From contig JACPLB010000006.1 in the NCBI GenBank assembly GCA_016186705.1, positions 16,325 through 80,324 on the forward strand: a DNA stretch of 64,000 nt, given 5' to 3'. Positions within the stretch are counted from its first letter, which is position 1; each line of letters opens with the position of its first letter. This document shows, one piece after another, positions 16,380 to 60,387 of this stretch. The DNA comes from Candidatus Kaiserbacteria bacterium (GTDB lineage: Bacteria; Patescibacteriota; Minisyncoccia; Phycocordibacterales; JABMNX01). The notes below the pieces were generated by a model. The model saw only the letters and a program-made list of their open reading frames with translations. It ran no database searches and had not been told where the DNA came from. The position numbers were made by a program, and so were the translations under genes.

Positions 16380-16465
16380 GCCCAGATGGTGGAACTGGTA
16401 TACACACACGCTTGAGGGGCGTGACTCGTTAGAGTGTGCGGGTTCGAGTCCCGCTCTGGGCACCA
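16380..16465 (+). tRNA. tRNA-Leu (anticodon GAG), CCA encoded
   Basis: GCCCAGA acceptor stem, anticodon stem CACGC/GCGTG with loop TTGAGGG (GAG), long variable arm ACTCGTTAGAGTGT, T-arm GCGGGTTCGAGTCCCGC, 3' TCTGGGCACCA. Confidence 0.85.
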
Positions 16466-16471
16466 CATCTT

Positions 16472-16500
16472 AAAAAATGAGACCTGCGTCTCATTTTTTA
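16472..16500 (+). terminator. rho-independent terminator after tRNA-Leu
   Basis: aaaaaatgagacc-tgcg-tctcatttttta hairpin with flanking A/T runs. Confidence 0.6.
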
Positions 16501-16595
16501 AGATGTGGTGAGACGGAGCGATGTCGCTTTGCGACCGCGAGTCCGGGCAGGAGCCACTTAGCGAATGCAATGAGCTTAGCGAGCTGACGCCAAAT
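16501..16595. repeat. ~95-nt element B related to element A, flanked by duplicated terminator hairpins
   Basis: Core gcgagtccgggcaggagcc...gagctgacgccaaat is similar to 13951-14028. Bounded by two copies of aaaaaatgagacc(N4)tctcatttt (16472-16500 and 16596-16624). Confidence 0.4.
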
Positions 16596-16624
16596 AAAAA
16601 AATGAGACCCCGGTCTCATTTTAA
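16596..16624 (+). terminator. second copy of the terminator hairpin
   Basis: aaaaaaatgagaccccggtctcatttt. Near-identical to 16472-16500 except for the loop. Confidence 0.55.
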
Positions 16625-36304: not shown

Positions 36305-37627
36305 ATGGCAACAGAAAAAGAACGGCTCATGGAAAATATCGTATCGCTCGCAAAGCGGCGCGGTTTTGTGTTTCAAGGGTCTGAAATCTACGGAGGCATT
36401 GCTGGCATGTGGGACTATGGGCCTTTGGGGGTGGAACTTGCGCATAACATCAAGGATATCTGGTGGCGCATGTTCGTCTATAACCGGGAGGACATGTATG
36501 GTATTGATGCGTCTATTTTAATGAATCCGAGAGTCTGGGAAACAAGCGGGCACACAAAAACTTTTTCAGACCCCGTAATCAAATGTGTGAAATGTAAAAA
36601 ACAATTTCGTGCTGACCAATTAGATAACAAAAACGCTTGTCCTGCGTGCGGAGGCAAACTTAGTAAGAGTCAGCCGTTTAATTTGATGTTCAAAACCTAT
36701 ATTGGCGCAACCGAAGATAGTGATTCAATCTCCTACCTTCGTCCGGAAACGGCGGGCGGCATTTTTGTGAATTTTAAAAATGTTGTCGACTCCATGCATC
36801 CGAAACTGCCGTTCGGTATCGCGCAAATCGGCAAGGCGTTCCGGAATGAGATTGCTCCGCGAGATTTTCTCTTCCGTCTTCGGGAATTAAAACAAATGGA
36901 AATTGAATACTTCGTCCGTGCGGAAGAGTGGGAACGCGCCTTTGAAGAATGGCGGCTCGCTATGCTCGCATTTGCCAAAGAAGTGGGCATTCCAAAAAAG
37001 GTGATTCATGAGCTCGAAGTGCCGGAGAGTGAACGCGCGCACTATTCAAAACGCACCATTGATTTTGAGTTTGATTATCCATTTGGGAAAAAGGAACTGT
37101 GGGGCTTGGCGTATCGCACCGACTATGACCTTTCACGTCATGCGGAGGCGTCCGGCGCCGATTTGACATACTTCGACGAAGAAGAAAACAAGCGATTCAT
37201 CCCGCATGTGATAGAACCATCGTTTGGAGTGGACCGAACGTTTCTTGCCGTTCTTCTCTCTGCGTATCGCGTGGACGAGATAAAAGGGGAGAAGCGCGTT
37301 TTTCTTGCGTTTAAGCCCGCCGTTGCTCCAATTAAAGTTGCGGTTTTTCCTCTTCTTAAAAACAAGCCAGAATTGGTTACAAAAGCGCGAAATATATACC
37401 AAATGCTTAAAAAACACATTCCGCAGATTGATTTCGATGATAATGGCAATATCGGCAAGCGATATCGCCGGCAAGACGAGATCGGCACGCCATACTGCGT
37501 GACAATTGACTTTGATACGCTTGAAGATAACACAGTCACTCTGCGCGACCGCGACACGACCGAGCAAGAGCGAGTCAACGAAAAAAATCTTCTTGAAATA
37601 CTTAAGAAAAAACTCGTAAGCTTTTAA
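36305..37627 (+). CDS. glyQS: glycine--tRNA ligase (class II, alpha2 archaeal/eukaryote-like type)
   Basis: FVFQGSEIYGGIAGMWDYGPLGVEL (motif 1), FRNEIAPRDFLFRLRE (motif 2), and a C-terminal anticodon-binding domain. Confidence 0.9.
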   Translation: MATEKERLMENIVSLAKRRGFVFQGSEIYGGIAGMWDYGPLGVELAHNIKDIWWRMFVYNREDMYGIDASILMNPRVWETSGHTKTFSDPVIKCVKCKKQFRADQLDNKNACPACGGKLSKSQPFNLMFKTYIGATEDSDSISYLRPETAGGIFVNFKNVVDSMHPKLPFGIAQIGKAFRNEIAPRDFLFRLRELKQMEIEYFVRAEEWERAFEEWRLAMLAFAKEVGIPKKVIHELEVPESERAHYSKRTIDFEFDYPFGKKELWGLAYRTDYDLSRHAEASGADLTYFDEEENKRFIPHVIEPSFGVDRTFLAVLLSAYRVDEIKGEKRVFLAFKPAVAPIKVAVFPLLKNKPELVTKARNIYQMLKKHIPQIDFDDNGNIGKRYRRQDEIGTPYCVTIDFDTLEDNTVTLRDRDTTEQERVNEKNLLEILKKKLVSF

Positions 37628-37642
37628 CTTTTCACTTTCTTT

Positions 37643-37663
37643 CCACTTTCCACTTTCCACTTT
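37643..37663. repeat. heptamer tandem repeat (ccacttt)x3
   Basis: ccactttccactttccacttt in the glyQS / AI-2E intergenic region, preceded by the degenerate units tcactttctttc. Confidence 0.5.
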
Positions 37664-37675
37664 ATACTTACGCAT

Positions 37676-52900: not shown

Positions 52901-53452
52901 AACAGCAAGGGCTCAATCGGTATCTACAAGTTCACGGTAAACATCGCAACATCGTCAACACCAGAAAATACATCATCAACAACGGTGACAAATCTCAAGA
53001 TTCTTGGGTACACTGACTCTGGCTTCTCAAGCGCAGTGTCAGGGTTCACCATTGCAGGTCAATTGAACGACACGACTGCCGGCTTGGTTTCAAGTGGCAA
53101 CACCGATGTCTTGATGACCGGTTCAACGCAGGGTCAGGATTATCTCCAGATCCCAGCGACCGCGACCTACTACTTCCGAGTAGTAGCGGATGTAACCTTA
53201 ACTGGTAGCCCAACGGGTGGTACGGTAACCACGAATCTTCAAGGTGATGCAGAATATCCAGCAAACGGATTGACATTCCTTATGGCCAATGCAGCAAGTA
53301 CAACCGCGTTTACAAACGCAGTTGGCAACGACTTCATCTGGTCACCGAATGCAACCACGACGTCAAACATCACTCATGAAGACTGGACGAACGGTTACTT
53401 CGTACCTGGATTACCAGCAGATAACATGGATAGCCAGGTTATCGTTAAGTAA
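49910..53452 (+). CDS. giant (1181 aa) secreted/TM-anchored surface protein with N-terminal peptidoglycan-binding domain and Thr/Ser/Gly-rich beta repeats
   Basis: Track ORF trimmed to ATG at 49910 preceded by aaagg RBS. N-terminal TM/signal (VAIAILVVAMIFGAVFALSSVKAYA). PG_binding_1-like segment (GATGDDVTCLQTYLQG..., GYFGSITQSAVAAWQAANGVSPAVGYFGPLSQAKY). Then >1000 aa of repeated ~100-aa T/S/G/A/V-rich domains. GC higher than flanks. Confidence 0.6.
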   Translation: MINTLETKKVAIAILVVAMIFGAVFALSSVKAYALTEAQVQSILSLLSSFGADQATINNVDSSLRGLPTSGTGSTGTTACSFTRSLTVGATGDDVTCLQTYLQGTGHFTFTGAKGYFGSITQSAVAAWQAANGVSPAVGYFGPLSQAKYTAVAGSTGTTGGTTTGGTTTTPAPTGTGLTVGSAGQPAASLAPDSAARVPFTRINVTAGTDGDVVLNSVSVKRVGLAANAVFSGVILVDENGVQLGTSKTLGSNDQAIVGEAVTIKAGQTRTFTVAGNMAADNSTRDGQVVGLNVVGVNTSATVSGSLPISGTQHTVNASLAIGSATFNISSFDPNSAQTKEIGTTGTRFAGIRVTAGSAEDIRIRNIRWNQTGSAGSTDFINVKTIVDGTEYPTTVSADGKFYTSNFGAGLVVSEGNNVDIYVKGDIVGGSNRTIVMDIDKDTDVYITGETFGYGITGTAGSTASAATDSSQFTTGTPFFDASHMTISAGSASTIQKSASVPAQNIAVNVPNQPLGAFETDIKGEAINVSGMTLTVASTTGSGTGLLTNVTIVDQNGAVVAGPVDATYTSALVQTLTFTDSITIPVGKMVYSIKGKVASGIGNGGTYIVTVTPSGWTSPTGDVTGNAITISQGAFTLNTMTVRAADLAITVSATPVAQNITAGATNFTFANYQFDATQSGEDVRFSSMIGLLGGGASGTEGAYNNLSACQLWDGTTALNTGSNVVDPSAGTASSTSANTFTFDSALTIPKGTIKTLALKCNLSSSAHSASTYQWGIANTAANITVTGVTSSNSVTETVTASNGQLMTVAAVSVVVSKDSSSPSYTIASAGSTGITAGVINFRAANESITLQRVGLVLTNTSSSSPGNLTQVTLYDGNTPVGTAIFTGASTRATSTLSVPVTLPKDTDKDLTVKIDLANIGTSQSGTQGALIAVDVDTNSTNTQGVGQESGTTVNASGSTAFDGIRVFKSYPTFAKLAIPSTVLVTSTMDLYRFSVTANSKGSIGIYKFTVNIATSSTPENTSSTTVTNLKILGYTDSGFSSAVSGFTIAGQLNDTTAGLVSSGNTDVLMTGSTQGQDYLQIPATATYYFRVVADVTLTGSPTGGTVTTNLQGDAEYPANGLTFLMANAASTTAFTNAVGNDFIWSPNATTTSNITHEDWTNGYFVPGLPADNMDSQVIVK

Positions 53453-53504
53453 TCTACGGTCTCAAGTCTAGGCGCAGGTTTGCTCACATAACCTTCCTAG
53501 CAGC

Positions 53505-53534
53505 AAAAGCCCCTCGCGGAAGCGAGGGGCTTTT
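53505..53534 (+). terminator. rho-independent terminator of the giant gene
   Basis: aaaagcccctcgc-ggaa-gcgaggggctttt. Confidence 0.6.
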
Positions 53535-53600
53535 GCATTGATGTTTCGTCTCTCACGTTTGTCTTTTGTGTTTGTAAGAGTAGAGGGTTAAAGGGAAGCT

Positions 53601-53640
53601 AAAGGATATTTTCTCAGCTATCGCTGAGAAAATATCCTTT
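53601..53640. repeat. intergenic palindromic repeat R copy 1
   Basis: aaaggatattttctcagc-tatc-gctgagaaaatatccttt. Perfect 18-bp arms. Preceded by a GA-rich tract (53560-53600). Confidence 0.6.
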
Positions 53641-53725
53641 GTGAATTATGAACAAAAGTGTTGCATTCTGCCTGTCAGATAGCGAGTTGCACAAGAGTGT
53701 TTTTTTACATACAATACAGTGCGTT

Positions 53726-54541
53726 ATGTTTGAAAATCTCTTGCGGGATAAAAATGTGCAAAAAGCACTCGGCGTGCTTGTTGTCGTTGTCGCGCTCGCG
53801 CTCATTGGTTGGTATATTGTCAACGACTTGAGAGGGAAAACCGATGGAGAAAATCTTGTGCAAGAAGGCGGTATTGGTGCGGATATTCGTGAGGGGGAAG
53901 GGGTTATACAACAAATTCCGGTTGACATAGTGATTACTCCTCGCTCAAATATTCTGACCCCAAAACTTGACCGAGCACTTGTATTTCACACAAATCTTGA
54001 TAGTGCCGCACAAGATATTATTCGAAATAATATTGCGCAGTTGACGGGAAGCTTAAAGGAGCAACCTGATTCTTTTGGGACATGGCTTGACTTGGCAATA
54101 CAATACAAGATTATCGGAGACTACGAAGGAGCGGCGGAAATCTGGGAGTACCTCAATAGAGCGGCTGAAGGAAACACAATCTCACGGGTGAATCTCGGCA
54201 ACCTCTATCACTACGAACTTAAAGAGTACGAAAAATCTGAAGCAAATTTCAAGGACGCGCTCCGTATCAATGCGCAACTACCCGAGGCGTACATGGGACT
54301 CTTTGAACTCTATCGCTACTCGTTTAAGACAAATACAACTGAAGCAGAGGATATCCTCAGAGAAGGAATTACGGCTCTTCCGCAAAATATTGACTTGGTC
54401 ATGACACTCGCCGGCTACTACAAGGAAAAGGAACGAGTAAACGATGCAAAAGAAACCTATCAAAAAGCCCGTACGCTTGCCGAGACTACCGGCAATACCG
54501 CACTCGTCGGAATGATTGACGACGAGCTCTCCGCACTTTAA
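53726..54541 (+). CDS. TM-anchored TPR-repeat protein
   Basis: Track ORF 53648.. overlaps repeat R1; a likelier start is ATG 53726 (MFENLLRDKNVQKALGVLVVVVALALIGWYI, a TM). C-terminal TPR-like units (WLDLAIQYKIIGDYEGAAEIWEYLNRAAE...; PEAYMGLFELYRY...). Confidence 0.5.
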   Translation: MFENLLRDKNVQKALGVLVVVVALALIGWYIVNDLRGKTDGENLVQEGGIGADIREGEGVIQQIPVDIVITPRSNILTPKLDRALVFHTNLDSAAQDIIRNNIAQLTGSLKEQPDSFGTWLDLAIQYKIIGDYEGAAEIWEYLNRAAEGNTISRVNLGNLYHYELKEYEKSEANFKDALRINAQLPEAYMGLFELYRYSFKTNTTEAEDILREGITALPQNIDLVMTLAGYYKEKERVNDAKETYQKARTLAETTGNTALVGMIDDELSAL

Positions 54542-54550
54542 ATTAAAAGC

Positions 54551-54700
54551 ATGAACCGCACCTTCCTTCATTTTCTCTTCGGCTTTCTTGCCATCCTACT
54601 CTTAAGCTTTGTCGTGACTGGCATTGTCGCACAGTACTCCGACGATGAAATTGTTGACAAAGACACGCAAATTGCCTGCCAGCAAACCAACTCCTGCTAA
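54551..54700 (+). CDS. possible small membrane/secreted peptide (49 aa)
   Basis: Unlisted short ORF MNRTFLHFLFGFLAILLLSFVVTGIVAQYSDDEIVDKDTQIACQQTNSC. Hydrophobic N-terminus, two Cys at the C-terminus. Confidence 0.25.
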   Translation: MNRTFLHFLFGFLAILLLSFVVTGIVAQYSDDEIVDKDTQIACQQTNSC

Positions 54701-54766
54701 AAAAGCTTAATAATAAAATCCGGTACAAAAAAGTGCAAAGGCTAAATAAAACCTAGTACAAAAAAG

Positions 54767-54818
54767 TACAACAGAATATTAACTCAGCTATCGCGCAAAA
54801 TTCTTCTGTTGTATAATG
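54767..54818. promoter_or_regulatory. R-family variant (copy 2) carrying a -10 box immediately upstream of the PaaX-like gene
   Basis: acaacagaatattaactcagctatcgcgcaaaattcttctgttgtataatg shares ctcagctatcgcgcaaaattct with R4. Flanking arms acaacagaa/ttctgttgt. tataat at 54811-54816. Direct repeat gtacaaaaaagt(g/a)caa at 54723 and 54756. Confidence 0.4.
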
Positions 54819-54825
54819 TAAAATA

Positions 54826-55398
54826 ATGAAGAATGATAGGTATACACCAAAGGAGATACTCCTCTATCTCCTTGTGGGGGGAAGTATAGTCGTTGGTGTG
54901 GCATATCCTGTCTTTCTCACGCCGGCAATATTTCTTGCGCATTATCTAAAAAAGAAAGATATTAATAAACAAAATAAAGACCGTCTCAAAAGCTCTTTTT
55001 ATTATTTAAAAAATAAGGGATATATTTCAATAAAGAAACGTAATGGGAAAGTAATCATAGGTCTTTCCGATAGGGGTATAGAACGAGCGAAAATATACAA
55101 GATACAAACGAAGTTGAATGAAAGACGTAGAAAAAAAGTGGTATGGGATGGACGTTGGCGCGTGGTTATATTTGACATCCGGGACAGCCACAAGCTTAAA
55201 AGAGACGCGTTACGACGGGTGTTGCAACGTTCTGGGTTTAAACTTTTACAAAAAAGTGTGTGGATATACCCCTTCGACTGTACTGAAGAAATATCTTATG
55301 TTAAGGATTTTTTTAATATAGACGACAAAGAGTGTCGAATTCTTACCGTAAGTGATATTGGAGACGATAAAGACGTACGGAAAGAGTTTGGCGTATAA
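54826..55398 (+). CDS. PaaX-like transcriptional regulator with N-terminal hydrophobic segments
   Basis: C-terminal VVWDGRWRVVIFDIRDSHKLKRDALRRVLQRSGFKLLQKSVWIYP matches the PaaX_C pattern (WDG.W....D.......R..LR..L...GFG.L...VW..P). A wHTH-like region precedes it (LKSSFYYLKNKGYISIKKRNGKVIIGLSDRG). Two N-terminal hydrophobic stretches. Confidence 0.55.
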   Translation: MKNDRYTPKEILLYLLVGGSIVVGVAYPVFLTPAIFLAHYLKKKDINKQNKDRLKSSFYYLKNKGYISIKKRNGKVIIGLSDRGIERAKIYKIQTKLNERRRKKVVWDGRWRVVIFDIRDSHKLKRDALRRVLQRSGFKLLQKSVWIYPFDCTEEISYVKDFFNIDDKECRILTVSDIGDDKDVRKEFGV

Positions 55399-55455
55399 GG
55401 GAGGGGAAGTGTAGGGAAGCAAAGAGAAAGCAAGATATAGAAGAGTAGAAAAAGC

Positions 55456-55495
55456 AAAGGATATTTTCTCAGCTATAGCTGAGAAAATATCCTTT
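55456..55495. repeat. intergenic palindromic repeat R copy 3
   Basis: aaaggatattttctcagc-tata-gctgagaaaatatccttt. Preceded by a GA-rich tract (55381-55455). Confidence 0.6.
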
Positions 55496-55584
55496 GCGAG
55501 TCTTTTATGAGTTATAAACAGAAATAACGTGATTATACTTTTAAATATTGCTAGCATAAAAAGTAACAATTCTAGATTCTAACG

Positions 55585-56208
55585 ATGAAAGCTCTTTTTT
55601 TGAAGATATGGATAATCGGACGATGGATACTTCTCATCCTCGCCGTATTATTTGTCGGTCTAGTCATTTATCGCATTCCTTTTATAGCAGAACAAGAGCG
55701 CACTGAAGAAGCTATTACGCGCATTGAAGCGCAGGTACTCACTAAAGAAGATGTAACGGGAGAGCGCCTGCCGCCACAACCTGACCAGGCACTTGTGAAT
55801 GCAACAGTTGAGGGAATTGACGCGAACAAAAATGGCATCCGTGATGATGTTGAATTAGCAATTTTTGAACGGTACTCGGGAGATATAAATATCAAGATTC
55901 GCGCGGCAATGTTGCAATATGCAATAGCACAACAGGTGTATCTAACAGATGTATCTAACTCAGAAATTTGGATTGCCGCTGTGAAACACCGAGGGAGAGG
56001 AATCGGTTGTTTGGTTGAAGTAGCGTTTGAAGAATACACTGATATTAAAGATCAAATAGGAAAAACTGATGAATGGATAATGTTTGTAAGTGATCTCATT
56101 TTTAACTCGGATAGACGTCTGGAGAAGAAGAATGAGATTGATCAATTCGATACTGCCTATGCTGACGGAGGCACAGAAACATGTGATGTAGATTTGGAGA
56201 TTTTATAA
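55585..56208 (+). CDS. membrane-anchored hypothetical protein
   Basis: N-terminal TM (IWIIGRWILLILAVLFVGLVIY), then a soluble domain. No family recognised. Confidence 0.4.
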   Translation: MKALFLKIWIIGRWILLILAVLFVGLVIYRIPFIAEQERTEEAITRIEAQVLTKEDVTGERLPPQPDQALVNATVEGIDANKNGIRDDVELAIFERYSGDINIKIRAAMLQYAIAQQVYLTDVSNSEIWIAAVKHRGRGIGCLVEVAFEEYTDIKDQIGKTDEWIMFVSDLIFNSDRRLEKKNEIDQFDTAYADGGTETCDVDLEIL

Positions 56209-56217
56209 TTCGCCGCT

Positions 56218-58965
56218 ATGAGGGTTCTGCTTCTCATCATAGCAATTCTCTTAACTCCAAATTTTGCACAAGCTACGGTATGTCAGAGCACTGGATATAC
56301 AGTATTGTTTATTAACGGTATTTTTACTGAACGAGCTAAAGCTGAGTCCGACATAAGAATATTTGAAAGAGCGTTCTTACAAACGTCTGATTTGAAGAAC
56401 GTTATTTTTCGGTTAGGCTATAATTCTTCACATTTCGCGGGTTTTGGAGATATAGCACAAGTTGTATCGCAGGCGCTCGGAAGTTCGATAAGTGATTTTG
56501 ATCTCAGGACTATTTTGATGCAGGTTTATCCGGAAGTTACTACGCGAAAAATTCTACTCGTCGGGCACTCGCAGGGGACATTTTATACAAACGAGCTGTA
56601 CGATTATCTCACACTACATGGAGTACCAGAGGAATCTATTGCCGTGTATAACCTGGCGACTCCTGCGAGTTTGGTTGCCGGCGGCGGAAAGTATCTGACG
56701 TCTGGGAACGACAACCTCATTAATACGGTACGAGAGTGGACAGCCGCCGCCGGTACAGAACAGCCGCTACCGGCAAACATTCTTATCCCGCTCTCTTCAT
56801 TGGAGACACAAGAACTTTGGCGCGGACATTCATTCAGCGGCGAGTATCTTGCACAAGGCACCGGTATAATTGTTTCTGATATTACCAACGTTCTTACTTC
56901 ATTAACCGCCAAAGATACTATAGACGCGGATATATCCGGCTGCTTCGAACCGCCAGCGGACACACTCTCGTATCGTATACAGGAATTCGGATTTGCCGTT
57001 GTTGATCCATTTGCTCAAGCTACCCGAAACACGGCACAAGCAACAGGAAGAGCTGTTGCAATAACCACATCACGAGTCACTTCGGGTGTTAAGGCAGCAG
57101 TTAGTGCAATCAGTGAAACACTCTCGACAGTAAATACGCCCGCGTCACCTTCAGGCCTTGACACCGTGGCACAGGACCTTGCTTCAGTAAGTGGTGCAAC
57201 AGAATCGATTGCTGTTACTGGAGAAGGAAGTATTTCCATTACCCCAGAGGCGCCTGTGATATTGCCAAATAACACAACGGAACTATTACCTGAAGACACC
57301 GATACGTTTGCAATACCCGAAGAAGAAAAATTGACCGAAACTGCGGATGATTTTGATACAGAGGATCAAGACTCGGAGAATACGTTTGGAGTTCCGGACC
57401 TGATTCCCGTCATTACTCCGTTCGTTGGAGGGAGCGGCAGTGGCCCTTTGAAAATTAAGGAAGCGCAAGAAAAAGCCGAGGCTGAAGCGGAAACTGTAGA
57501 AGAGGTCGTTACTCCTCCTCTCTCAATCATATCGCCGGGAAACTCGTCTATTTTTGCGACAACCACGGTTACATTTACCGGGACAACGACGCCTCTTGCG
57601 ACCGTATCGCAAACTTTTTCAAGCGCGACAACAAGTGCCGATGTAGACGGTAATTGGGAGCTCACACTTTCCGGATTTTCGGAAGGAGCGACGACGGTGC
57701 GGTTTACTGCAACAAACCAAGAAAATATCGCATCGGACCCGACAGAGTTATTGATTAATATCGATACCGTCTCGCCTTCGTTTGAATTGTTCAGTGTACT
57801 GCAATGCATCTATTCACTTACTTCCGGTCTTTGTTTATCCGGAAGCACGAATGTCAATGTAATGTGGACATCAACTTCAACCGACATTGCATATTACGGA
57901 ATTGTCTTAAATGGCACAGAATCTGCGACTACAACAGCCACTACGACGACAGCAACGCTTTCCAATAACGCCAACAGCACTATCGAAATTGTCGCATATG
58001 ATACGGCAGGAAATGTAGCTACATCTTCCTCTCAAGTTGTTGAAGTACTTGACATGCCGATAGTGATAAATGAAATTGCGTGGGCGGGTACGCAGACGGA
58101 CGAATTTGATGAGTGGATTGAACTCTACAACAGAAGCAATTACACAATCAATCTTTCAAACATAATACTCCTTGCTGAAGATGGGGTTCCATACGTTTCT
58201 TTATCAAGCACGCTTGCCTCTGACGGGTACTATCTCATTGAACGTACTGATGATAATACTACAAGCATTACGGCAGATTTAACCGTGGCTTTCAGCGGAA
58301 TAGGCAATGGTTCCGGGCTTTCGAACAGCGGAGAAGTACTAAACTTAATTCACGCACTCGGCGGACAAGCGTCAACAACACTTGATGCAACTCCAGCTTT
58401 ATCTTCGTGCAGTAACGCGTGGTGCGCTGGAGGAGAGGGGAGCCAGCCGACCACGATGGAACGGGCAAGCGCTTCTACAGATGGGACACTTTCTTCAAAC
58501 TGGAAATCAAACAATACATTTACGAAGAATGGCACTGATGCGGGCGGGAACATTATTAACGGTACGCCTCGCGCACAGAATAGTGTCAGCTTGCTTGATA
58601 TCGGCTACTTCTGCTCTCCGGAAACGGAAAGTTTTGAAGAAGATGGCTTTTATACCCCGCCTACATCCGCATCATGTACATATCTTTCTTCCGAACTTTC
58701 CGGTCAGCGGTATGGAGATTTGTATAGGGGGACTGTCGCAAGCTCAACCATAGTAACCGGGCATTCATTAGGGGTAAGTACCAGTAAAACCGAAACTGAC
58801 TCATATTCTGGGGCAGTACAAGGAGACAGCTATTTCGTTGCGATTTTTGAAATTCACAGCAATCCCAACTTGACTGCCTTCCGAAATTATTTTCAAACCG
58901 GCGCGAATGCCCCGCCGCACTTAAACTACGGCATCATTAACTGGACATACGGTACTGCGCCATAA
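56218..58965 (+). CDS. secreted alpha/beta-hydrolase (lipase/esterase-like, GHSQG) fused to Thr-rich beta repeats and a lamin-tail domain
   Basis: Signal peptide (LLLIIAILLTPNFAQA). Nucleophile elbow ILLVGHSQGTFYTNELYDYL. Central T/S-rich region. LTD-like VINEIAWAGTQTDEFDEWIELYNRSNYTINLSNIILLAEDG. Confidence 0.55.
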   Translation: MRVLLLIIAILLTPNFAQATVCQSTGYTVLFINGIFTERAKAESDIRIFERAFLQTSDLKNVIFRLGYNSSHFAGFGDIAQVVSQALGSSISDFDLRTILMQVYPEVTTRKILLVGHSQGTFYTNELYDYLTLHGVPEESIAVYNLATPASLVAGGGKYLTSGNDNLINTVREWTAAAGTEQPLPANILIPLSSLETQELWRGHSFSGEYLAQGTGIIVSDITNVLTSLTAKDTIDADISGCFEPPADTLSYRIQEFGFAVVDPFAQATRNTAQATGRAVAITTSRVTSGVKAAVSAISETLSTVNTPASPSGLDTVAQDLASVSGATESIAVTGEGSISITPEAPVILPNNTTELLPEDTDTFAIPEEEKLTETADDFDTEDQDSENTFGVPDLIPVITPFVGGSGSGPLKIKEAQEKAEAEAETVEEVVTPPLSIISPGNSSIFATTTVTFTGTTTPLATVSQTFSSATTSADVDGNWELTLSGFSEGATTVRFTATNQENIASDPTELLINIDTVSPSFELFSVLQCIYSLTSGLCLSGSTNVNVMWTSTSTDIAYYGIVLNGTESATTTATTTTATLSNNANSTIEIVAYDTAGNVATSSSQVVEVLDMPIVINEIAWAGTQTDEFDEWIELYNRSNYTINLSNIILLAEDGVPYVSLSSTLASDGYYLIERTDDNTTSITADLTVAFSGIGNGSGLSNSGEVLNLIHALGGQASTTLDATPALSSCSNAWCAGGEGSQPTTMERASASTDGTLSSNWKSNNTFTKNGTDAGGNIINGTPRAQNSVSLLDIGYFCSPETESFEEDGFYTPPTSASCTYLSSELSGQRYGDLYRGTVASSTIVTGHSLGVSTSKTETDSYSGAVQGDSYFVAIFEIHSNPNLTAFRNYFQTGANAPPHLNYGIINWTYGTAP

Positions 58966-59052
58966 ACATTACCACTTCTCGCCATTTTGTAAGATGGGGT
59001 AAGTAAGACAGATTACATAAGAGGGGGAGAAGTAAAAAGAGGCAAAGGAAGT

Positions 59053-59095
59053 AAAGGATATTTTCTCAGCTATCGCGCAAAATTCTCCTGTGTAG
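59053..59095. repeat. intergenic repeat R copy 4 (hybrid of the R1/R3 left arm and the R2 right arm)
   Basis: aaaggatattttctcagctatcgcgcaaaattctcctgtgtagg. Preceded by a GA-rich tract (58980-59052). Confidence 0.55.
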
Positions 59096-59398
59096 GAGGG
59101 AATAAAGGGGGTGGGGATAAAGGTTGCGGAAGTATTATTTCGTGGTATTGTAAAAGATGGAGCAGTACCATGACGTTTTTTGGTGAACGCTCTGACTTTG
59201 TTTCAAACCGACCGTGGAAGGACACACCATGACCAAGCGTCTCTCCGCCATTCGGCCGCCGGGGACAACGAGTCTCCTGCGTCCGAAACACCAGATCGGC
59301 ATCTCCGCGGAAGTCCGCACCGACTTCAAGACGAACGTCGGCGACCTCGACACCGCCTAGCCACTCAACGGCGAGGCACGTGTTTCACCTCTAGTTAA

Positions 59399-59440
59399 TT
59401 GCCGGCGTCCAACCTTCGGGATGGACCGTCACGCCGGCAA
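59399..59440. other. strong stem-loop in GC-rich non-coding locus
   Basis: ttgccggcgt-ccaaccttcgggatggaccgtc-acgccggcaa: perfect 10-bp outer stem with an internally paired loop (gtcca...tggac). Downstream, ccccggcgcagg...cctgccgccgggg plus a T-run (59495-59540) looks like a terminator. Confidence 0.35.
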
Positions 59441-59640
59441 TAAGGGGATTGTGGCGATCTCCTCTCTACGGGATAGCGCAAGCCACTTTCCCCCGCCCCG
59501 GCGCAGGTTCTCCTCCTGCCGCCGGGGCTCTACTTTTTTATACTAAAGGGAACGGTAACTTGACAGAGATATAATTTTATGTTTATAATGTAGCTTGAGG
59601 TTCTTTTGCAGTTGTATATCACTCATTCACGGAGGTTCCG

Positions 59641-60387
59641 ATGGGTAACATTTCCATTCTTCTCATCGGCCGTGGGCAGATGGGAAAAGACGAAGAGGCA
59701 CATTTACGCACTTGCTTCCCTGAGATTGATGGCATTTCCTACGTCAATGGGGAGAATCTCTCCACCTTCAAACTCTCGCGGATTGCGTATGACTCAGACG
59801 TGATGGTCTTGGTGGACCCGCGTCAGTTGCCGCGCACGGTTGATATCGTCCGCGGAGCACTCGGACAGCAATCAAAAACGATGCTGTTCTGTGGCGACAC
59901 ACAACATCTCGAACTCCGCTCGGTTTCTTTGGAGCTCGTTGATTTTGTTCTGCAGGAAGCTGAAATTCGTTTCCTAGAGAGCATACCGCATTCTCAGTAT
60001 AACGTTGCCTTCTCAATGATTGAGAAAACCGAAGACCGCGAAGAGTACATCTGGCGGATGGTTCGGAATGCCCGCATCAGCACCCTGTCCCCGCACTTTA
60101 CCTCGTGGAGACCCAGCAGTCCCGAACAGTGGGAAGAGCTTGTCACGCATCATCGCCCAAACTTGGTTGTCATGAGTATGGGGGACAGGAACGTGCGGTT
60201 CGCGTATCACGCGCTCCTTGCACGGCGTCCGAGGGAAGAACGGATTAAGAATGTCCAGAGGCAAGGACATATCCCAAATCACTTTCCTCATGCGATTTTC
60301 TACATGAAGAAAGACAAAAACGGCAAAGAATCACTAGCACTCTGTGAAGTTCGACTGAAGTTTAAGACGGTCGAGCAGAGCACTTGA
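59641..60387 (+). CDS. hypothetical protein
   Basis: 248-aa ORF preceded by ttgaca/tataat-like elements (59557-59590) and a gaggt RBS. No family recognised. Confidence 0.4.
   Translation: MGNISILLIGRGQMGKDEEAHLRTCFPEIDGISYVNGENLSTFKLSRIAYDSDVMVLVDPRQLPRTVDIVRGALGQQSKTMLFCGDTQHLELRSVSLELVDFVLQEAEIRFLESIPHSQYNVAFSMIEKTEDREEYIWRMVRNARISTLSPHFTSWRPSSPEQWEELVTHHRPNLVVMSMGDRNVRFAYHALLARRPREERIKNVQRQGHIPNHFPHAIFYMKKDKNGKESLALCEVRLKFKTVEQST

Follow-up and report, generated by a model that had tools for sequence, protein, structure and literature searches.

A 64,000 bp stretch of contig JACPLB010000006.1 from a Candidatus Kaiserbacteria bacterium (assembly GCA_016186705.1, positions 16,325 to 80,324; referred to here as the window) was found to contain four related dyad sites of ~40–45 bp, grouped around a gene for a small PaaX-like protein. 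The order of features on the + strand was a 1198-amino acid (aa) protein, copy 1, a tetratricopeptide repeat (TPR) protein and a 49-aa protein, copy 2, a 190-aa protein, copy 3, a 207-aa protein and a 915-aa LTD-domain protein, and copy 4. The repeat finder placed the four sites at 53601, 54767, 55454 and 59053, all within 5.5 kb, and pairwise local alignments showed that homology between the copies spans only ~45–50 nt around each dyad.

The sites were assigned no strand. Copy 1 (53601–53640) is a perfect 18-4-18 dyad, AAAGGATATTTTCTCAGC TATC GCTGAGAAAATATCCTTT. The giant 1198-aa gene ends at 53452 and is followed by a canonical terminator at 53503–53536; copy 1 lies behind this terminator and ~105 nt before the likely start codon of the TPR gene (ATG 53727). 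Copy 2 (~54767–54813), which lies upstream of the PaaX-like gene, consists of an outer inverted repeat, TACAACAGAA (54767–54776) and TTCTGTTGTA (54804–54813) separated by N27, and the core CTCAGCTATCGCGCAAAATT. Its right end is 12 nt before the ATG and overlaps a TATAAT box (54812–54817, + strand) that is separated by 8 nt from the start codon at 54826, which suggests a putative promoter giving a near-leaderless mRNA. Copy 3 (55454–55497), downstream of the same gene, is a perfect 44 bp palindrome in which GCAAAGGATATTTTCTCAGCTA meets TAGCTGAGAAAATATCCTTTGC, the symmetry running through the centre at 22/22 positions, and begins 56 nt past the PaaX-like stop codon. Copy 4 (59053–59091) is a hybrid, its left arm being that of copies 1 and 3 and its right half that of copy 2; it lies 88 nt past the LTD gene and upstream of a GC-rich candidate RNA, and its outer hexamers are AAAGGA and TCCTGT. 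Across the four copies the outer hexamers can be written A[AC]AG[GA]A and T[CT]CT[GT]T, with a spacing of N27 in copies 2 and 4 and of N28 in copies 1 and 3.

The window was searched for the 18-mer AAAGGATATTTTCTCAGC with up to 3 mismatches allowed and the chance level taken from shuffles. This revealed five exact matches (0 mismatches) compared to 0.06 expected, namely both arms at 53601–53640, both arms at 55456–55495 and the left arm at 59053, and no further copies in the 64 kb at up to 3 mismatches. The 22-mer CTCAGCTATCGCGCAAAATTCT had exactly two matches, at 54783 and 59065, compared to 0.00 expected. A first-pass annotation of this DNA had described a four-copy repeat family, and these counts show that the family is real. 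The perfect 18 bp arms that it placed at 53601 and 55456 were confirmed, copy 3 extending further to the 22/22 palindrome, as was the left arm joined to a different right arm at 59053, the right half here being common to copies 4 and 2. Copy 2 had been described as a right arm alone, which was not borne out, as it has a diverged left arm, ACAGAATATTAACTCAGC (14/18 identical), and its own dyad. The suggestion that mosaic arms reflect recombination between copies is plausible for copy 4, judged by its combination of the left of copy 3 with the right of copy 2.

The four sites surround the gene between 54826 and 55398 (+ strand), the sole PaaX_M family member in the window. It encodes the 190-aa protein, composed of a winged helix and a Cas2-like domain, that we propose as the binder of the sites. 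Residues 106–174 matched Pfam PaaX_M ('PaaX central Cas2-like domain') with an E value of 7.9e-19, and PaaX_C gave no match even at E ≤10; the protein stops right after the Cas2-like domain and is without the ligand domain. An AlphaFold2 model had a pLDDT of 79.5, and a Foldseek search with this model returned E. coli W PaaX (8a39; E 3e-4, ~188 aligned columns), Rv0674 (3kfw) and Jannaschia PaaX (3l09) as the best solved relatives, followed by PadR-type winged helices and Cas2 proteins. The hydrophobic N-terminus of the protein (residues 1–35, 54826–54930; EILLYLLVGGSIVVGVAYPVFLTPAIFLAHYL) is conserved in the family and was modelled with low confidence; it probably forms winged-helix helices H1–H2. 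A membrane anchor is unlikely, as the Foldseek alignment to PaaX covers 188/190 residues, though model confidence is low there. The genes beside the PaaX-like gene encode TPR, LTD and membrane proteins, with no paa genes nearby, and none of the nine proteins scanned around the sites had an integrase, recombinase or transposase domain.

Both sites that bracket the PaaX-like gene were also found in related genomes. In a relative (L018) whose PaaX-like protein is 54% identical, the genes run from TPR through a small protein, PaaX-like and 206 aa to LTD, with rplJ and rplL next. Its upstream site, CCTCAGCTACCACGCAGAATT, lies ~13 nt before a TATAAT box, and its downstream site is the perfect palindrome GTACAACATCTCAGC TATC GCTGAGATGTTGTAC at 1251–1284, 61 nt past the stop codon. 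No counterpart of copy 4 was found downstream of the LTD gene of L018. In a second relative (L108; 53% identical protein) CTCAGCTATCGCGCAGAATT, set within GTTTAAT...ATTAAAC, occurs both upstream and downstream of the gene, with a separate terminator (stem and T-run) beyond the downstream copy. In three more loci (L022, L109 and L110) the corresponding places are occupied by related dyads that have diverged. When eight sites drawn from three genomes were aligned, CTCAGCTA was invariant in 8/8, with flanks that could not be aligned; the positions of copies 2 and 3 and this core are kept in syntenic relatives at a protein identity of 53–55%. A geometry similar to the putative promoter overlap of copy 2 is seen in L108 and L110, the promoters being predicted only, and other family loci have −10-like boxes upstream of the dyad. 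Because the sites are kept in L018 and L108, and diverged dyads occur at the same places in L022, L109 and L110, we regard copies 2 and 3 as ancient, positionally conserved sites; copies 1 and 4 are read as lineage-specific extra sites. The conservation of copies 2 and 3 at orthologous positions counts against local duplications as the only origin of the repeats. It is also doubtful that they are confined to an accessory region, as had been proposed, given that the TPR, small protein, PaaX-like, 207-aa and LTD genes are syntenic in the relative at 54% identity.

Five independent short-read contigs (L016, L017 and L105–L107; Logan, from the same population) were collinear with the window. These contigs break off, at one end or the other, within the perfect palindromes of copies 1 and 3, as k-mer assemblers break inside such palindromes, and no rearranged junctions were present among the five, which is a small sampling.

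Eighty further metagenomic loci encoding relatives at 32–42% identity were fetched. The sequence was divided into a near zone within ~250 nt of the gene (38 kb in total) and a far zone comprising the remaining 232 kb. With a near-perfect dyad defined as an arm of at least 13 nt with no more than 2 mismatches, 63 were found in the near zone, whereas the far zone contained 19. The central 8-mer was fully palindromic in 44 of the 63 near dyads. The commonest centre by a wide margin was GCCATGGC (23 dyads), among whose variants were GCTATCGC, the form seen in the window, and GCTATAGC, GCGATCGC, GCAATTGC, ACCATGGT and CCTATAGG; such a centre was absent from all 19 far dyads. A separate count was made of GCCATGGC only, in which the arms play no part in selection. 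The near zone contained 52–54 occurrences (1.4 per kb) compared to 8 in the far zone (0.034 per kb), a ~40-fold difference, with GCCATGGC present in 31 of the 81 loci, mostly as one site upstream (UP) and one downstream (DOWN) of the gene. The arms of the near copies of GCCATGGC showed complementarity of 0.73–0.92 at positions 9–16 from the centre, weak complementarity at positions 5–8 and a decay beyond positions 17–19, whereas the far copies showed no arm complementarity. By inspection, the family consensus is approximately CGTAAAAT-N4-GCCATGGC-N4-ATTTTACG, with lineage variants in addition; the variant found in the window is GATATTTT-CTCA-GCTATAGC-TGAG-AAAATATC.

The UP sites end 1–35 nt before the start codon and the DOWN sites begin 1–80 nt past the stop codon. 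Within a locus the UP and DOWN half-arms were 79–100% identical, compared to ~39% between loci. The 28 bp site core was 93–100% identical between loci whose proteins were 59–72% identical and whose coding DNA was 54–74% identical; the sites are thus more conserved than the coding DNA, in line with selection at the sequence level. Across the centre types, C:G, T:A, G:C and A:T all occur at position 2 from the centre, where 88% of the 48 centre-type sites are complementary. The outermost arm positions (15–18) differ between close relatives yet remain complementary. When the mismatches were assessed for G:U pairing, 24 were compatible on the + strand and 14 on the − strand, with 56 of the 94 compatible on neither; the bias towards G:U was not significant. 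All-against-all BLASTP of the neighbouring ORFs (open reading frames) found no cluster in more than 5 of 82 loci, and because no partner gene is conserved, the gene and its two palindromes behave as a self-contained module. At 50%-identity clustering the protein family comprised 974 clusters at E ≤1e-30 and 3,809 at E ≤1e-10.

We favour, with moderate confidence, the interpretation that the four repeats are the cognate operators of the adjacent minimal PaaX-like regulator, and the loci compared indicate that the same pairing of gene and palindrome recurs across many uncultured Patescibacteria. Of the readings offered by the first-pass annotation it is that of a shared operator which agrees with a family-wide class of gene-linked dyads at conserved orthologous positions. 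The sites are read as PaaX-like operators because their central symmetry and mismatch pattern fit a protein that contacts duplex DNA. E. coli PaaX binds TGATTC-N27-GAATCA and its own promoter is repressed by occlusion (PMC9493321). We infer that the 190-aa protein binds the sites described here as a symmetric dimer or dimer of dimers on duplex DNA, with the Cas2-like domain serving in dimerisation. The protein would contact a long tripartite dyad made of a conserved centre (GC-TAT[C/A]-GC here, mostly GCCATGGC in the family) and lineage-specific symmetric arms. Copy 2, which lies over the gene's own putative promoter, would then mediate autorepression, as PaaX does at Px in E. coli. Copy 3 would be the family-typical downstream 'bracket' site, and may act by looping with copy 2 or by blocking transcription at the gene boundary. 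Copies 1 and 4 are centred ~85–105 nt upstream of the next putative promoters, that after copy 1 being TTGCAC-17-TACAAT (53687–53715), and could place the TPR operon and the GC-rich candidate RNA under the control of the same protein.

Several observations weigh against this operator interpretation. A crude ORF call at 31 loci put the gene after the DOWN site as co-directional in 17 and convergent in 14. As about half of the next genes thus appear to be convergent, control of a downstream promoter is not the general role of the DOWN site, which must be explained by looping with the UP site, by a boundary or roadblock function, or by something else. The variable outermost arms that stay complementary, together with the 79–100% identity of UP and DOWN arms, are a hint that selection for symmetry as such exceeds what a simple operator model would demand, and of a structural or copying constraint. 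Spacing also differs, with ACAACA hexamers 33 nt apart in copy 2 and 18 nt apart in the DOWN palindrome of L018. Copies 2 and 4 are asymmetric, and conservation extends to their asymmetric right half, GCGCARAATT. Where promoters lie in these organisms can only be guessed. Finally, the purine-rich tracts described below fall outside the operator model. It is because of these misfits (the DOWN site, the symmetry, the missing partner gene, the hybrid copy 4 and the purine tracts) that structure-dependent and mobile-module readings stay alive at low probability.

One such reading, which we consider unlikely, is that the palindromes act in an extruded form, as DNA cruciforms or hairpins or as RNA hairpins at either end (5′ and 3′) of the PaaX-like mRNA, and are recognised through the Cas2-like (RNA/DNA-nuclease-type) fold. 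Control would then be exerted over mRNA stability, translation or transcript boundaries and not over promoter access. The predicted RNA hairpins of copies 1 and 3 are very stable (−31.7 kcal/mol, z −5.05, and −37.3 kcal/mol, z −7.5, respectively), whereas those of copies 2 and 4 are weak (z −2.9 and −2.1). The covariation of outer arm positions, in which complementarity is kept as the sequence changes, would suit such structures, and pairing to about position 16 with weakness at positions 5–8 is reminiscent of an internal loop beneath an apical stem-loop that is conserved. However, the symmetry includes the central positions, which a hairpin would need for its loop, and the position next to the centre covaries. 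This central symmetry and the lack of a significant G:U bias among the mismatches favour a symmetric protein on duplex DNA over a hairpin. The closeness of UP sites to the ATG and of DOWN sites to the stop codon, and a bracket arrangement that is independent of the orientation of neighbouring genes, are also in keeping with extruded elements of the transcript. In L108 the DOWN site has a separate terminator after it, which would place at least this one site inside the transcript of the gene. Copy 1, on the other hand, lies between the upstream terminator and the promoter-like TTGCAC-17-TACAAT ~70 nt further on, and is probably transcribed with neither neighbour if these signals are real; the closest solved relatives of the protein are moreover duplex-DNA-binding repressors.

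It is rather improbable, in our view, that the wHTH (winged helix-turn-helix)/Cas2-like gene and its bracketing palindromes form an autonomous palindrome-associated module, of a type so far undescribed in Patescibacteria, in which the protein would recognise the structure-prone perfect palindromes beside its own gene in any genomic context and may nick, bridge or homogenise them. The arm symmetry, the near-identity of UP and DOWN sites and hybrids such as copy 4 would in that case come from copying or symmetrising at the DNA level and not from ordinary evolution of operators. A module of this kind with a Cas2-like effector would have a loose parallel in REP (repetitive extragenic palindromic) sequences and their RAYTs (REP-associated tyrosine transposases).

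We hold it to be very improbable that the gene and its two palindromes are a selfish or mobile cassette, or that the palindromes are site-specific recombination sites of which copies 1 and 4 are footprints. Near-identical palindromes do bracket the gene in many loci (the half-arms of L054, L055 and L093 are 100% identical), and no neighbour gene is conserved across the 82 loci. Copy 4 also has the exact junction, left of copy 3 and right of copy 2, that a crossover in the core would produce, and it is located where the window has ~2.5 kb that is absent from L018. Against this, synteny and sites are kept between genomes at 53–57% protein identity, the nine proteins scanned include no recombination enzyme, and tBLASTN detected no second or decayed copy of the gene near copy 4. 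Furthermore, the five independent contigs have the same arrangement and merely stop inside palindromes, the other loci had no extra copies within 3 kb apart from those flanking the gene, and no direct-repeat flanks were seen by eye.

A scan of 185,579 species-representative genomes, among which the source genome was not included, for the pattern GRATATTNNCTCAGCTATMGC gave 15 single hits in unrelated taxa, which we estimate to be about the chance number. A terminator scan was failed by copies 1, 2 and 4 and passed by copy 3 alone, which has a short T-run and scored as terminator-like on both strands. A dispersed family of the REP/BOX kind (that is, like miniature inverted-repeat transposable elements), or a mere set of intrinsic terminators, both of which the first-pass annotation had considered, would account for sequences that are palindromic, intergenic and present in several copies, but is highly improbable given that the copies number only four and are confined to 5.5 kb of the 64 kb window, that their orthologous positions are conserved and not scattered, that the genome hits are at chance level, that the stems are AT-rich with no T-run in copies 1, 2 and 4, and that GC-rich canonical terminators lie separately beside the sites (53503–53536, and in L108).

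Other identities were also tried and set aside. Rfam searches of the whole window at the gathering threshold, and of 53400–59700 at E ≤1, gave no credible RNA family, the only hits being sub-threshold miRNA-like matches on the hairpin. Viral contigs had no match to the copy 2-type core; two viral-contig hits to TCTCAGCTATMGCTGAGA lay in coding-like sequence on contigs with no PaaX_M gene and are probably due to chance. Integron attC sites were rejected, as no R′/R″ (GTTRRRY) boxes were seen by eye and there was no integrase among the nine proteins scanned. TTHA0973 was discarded as a related case because the paper concerned describes a TetR-family protein.

The sequence around the copies has features of its own. 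The first-pass annotation had reported purine-rich tracts of 40–80 nt before copies 1, 3 and 4. With a threshold of at least 85% A+G over 40 nt, tracts were found before copy 3 (55390–55463) and copy 4 (59010–59062), and the claim holds for these two. Excluding the dyads, the tracts occupy 55399–55453, from the stop codon to copy 3, and 59010–59052 on the + strand. The stretch before copy 1 (53574–53600, + strand; by eye) is ~27 nt long and below the threshold. A weak likeness on the left side of copies 1 and 3, in the words AAGAGTAGA and GGGAAGC, was noted by eye. To the right of both copies is a GAGTTATRAACA box, present as GAATTATGAACA directly 3′ of copy 1 (53643–53654, + strand) and as GAGTTATAAACA 11 nt 3′ of copy 3 (55509–55520, + strand). 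A box GAGTTATNAAC(A) is found at orthologous places in relatives (L018 1353–1363; L022 1806–1816), and in L104, a distant paralogous locus, the arms of the dyad consist of GAGTTATNAAC; the box may be a second type of half-site.

A 33 nt tandem duplication (54712–54777, + strand) runs into the left arm of copy 2, and the end of its first unit, GCAAAGGCTA, resembles the arm of copy 3. Short tandem repeats adjoin dyads elsewhere too: 11 nt units of TTTCAGAGTTA are present in L018 (445–510), and a repeated unit of ~17 nt, gtttaagcaaatatttt, stands beside the dyad site of L052 (~2663–2730).

Directly downstream of copy 4, the region between 59100 and 59640 has no convincing ORF and a GC content of 0.54–0.61 compared to 0.46 for the window. 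The predicted RNA fold of 59150–59540 (+ strand) is −158 kcal/mol (z −5.06), and the region contains a promoter-like TTGCGG-16-TATTGT at ~59128–59155 and a terminator-like site at 59514–59527. It had no Rfam match and no ARAGORN match, and is an unannotated candidate structured RNA. The interval from the LTD gene to rplJ is ~2.5 kb longer in the window than in the syntenic L018 (59641–61560 compared to L018 4440–4654). This additional segment contains the candidate RNA, a 248-aa ORF and a 163-aa ORF, with copy 4 at its left edge. Elsewhere in the window, a perfect 23-4-23 palindrome, CACCACATCTTAAAAAATGAGAC ctgc GTCTCATTTTTTAAGATGTGGTG, lies at 16461–16510 and abuts a tRNA (16380–16462). A related 11-2-11 palindrome, with AAAATGAGAC in common, is found ~100 nt beyond it at 16599–16622. 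A pyrimidine-rich tandem tract, (CACTTTC)n-like, is present at 37621–37669.

The Patescibacteria (Candidate Phyla Radiation) have tiny genomes and, to our knowledge, very few of their transcription factors have been assigned a binding site. The association described here provides a testable pairing of protein and site for a family of ~1,000 50%-identity clusters. It also indicates that the core of PaaX, Cas2-like/wHTH, occurs on its own as a predicted regulator with a bracketed site architecture. For annotation, the palindromes account for short-read assembly breaks at these loci, and such palindromes should not be labelled as REP or CRISPR-like repeats. PaaX-type wHTH regulators, long dyad operators and autorepression are already known. 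Full-text literature searches (PaaX with Cas2 or palindromes; transcription factor sites in Patescibacteria) returned no report of the gene-site association and no binding site assigned to this family. Four aspects appear to be new: a two-domain form that stands alone in Patescibacteria, a tripartite site built on a conserved centre of GCCATGGC type, the bracketing of the gene by its sites, and the local expansion to four sites in the Kaiserbacteria genome.

Compared to known systems, the sites share with intrinsic terminators a hairpin-capable sequence past the stop codon and, in copy 3, the short T-run, but differ in having AT-rich stems of 18–22 bp, a self-complementary loop and true terminators beside them. 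The pneumococcal BOX elements are likewise modular or mosaic intergenic repeats, whereas the sites described here have no boxA-B-C modules and no genome-wide spread, and keep their orthologous positions. REP sequences and bacterial interspersed mosaic elements with their RAYTs are similar in being palindromic intergenic repeats, with a gene flanked by its presumed target repeat. In contrast to these, the present sites are neither dispersed nor high-copy, their positions are conserved between species, and the linked protein is wHTH/Cas2-like and not a Y1 transposase, of which there was none among the nine proteins scanned. The wHTH proteins of PadR/AspA type show a fold match (1xma; AspA, 5k5q) and a palindrome next to their own gene; unlike those centromere-like or autoregulatory palindromes, the sites here are without partition genes, lie on both sides of the gene and are linked to a protein with a Cas2-like domain. 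PaaX of E. coli and Pseudomonas has the same two-domain core, a wHTH with a Cas2-like middle domain, and its operators likewise are dyads of ~40 bp with spaced outer hexamers (27–28 bp apart in the window sites but 18 nt in the L018 counterpart), one of them over the regulator's own promoter, which is here a predicted one. The window protein differs from PaaX in being without the C-terminal phenylacetyl-CoA ligand domain and in having no paa genes nearby, and its sites differ from PaaX operators in their conserved dyad centre (GCCATGGC or GCTATCGC) and in the full-length arm pairing of many of them. Also unlike PaaX, a second site just past the stop codon brackets the gene, and the family, of ~1,000 50%-identity clusters at E ≤1e-30, is here one of the Patescibacteria.

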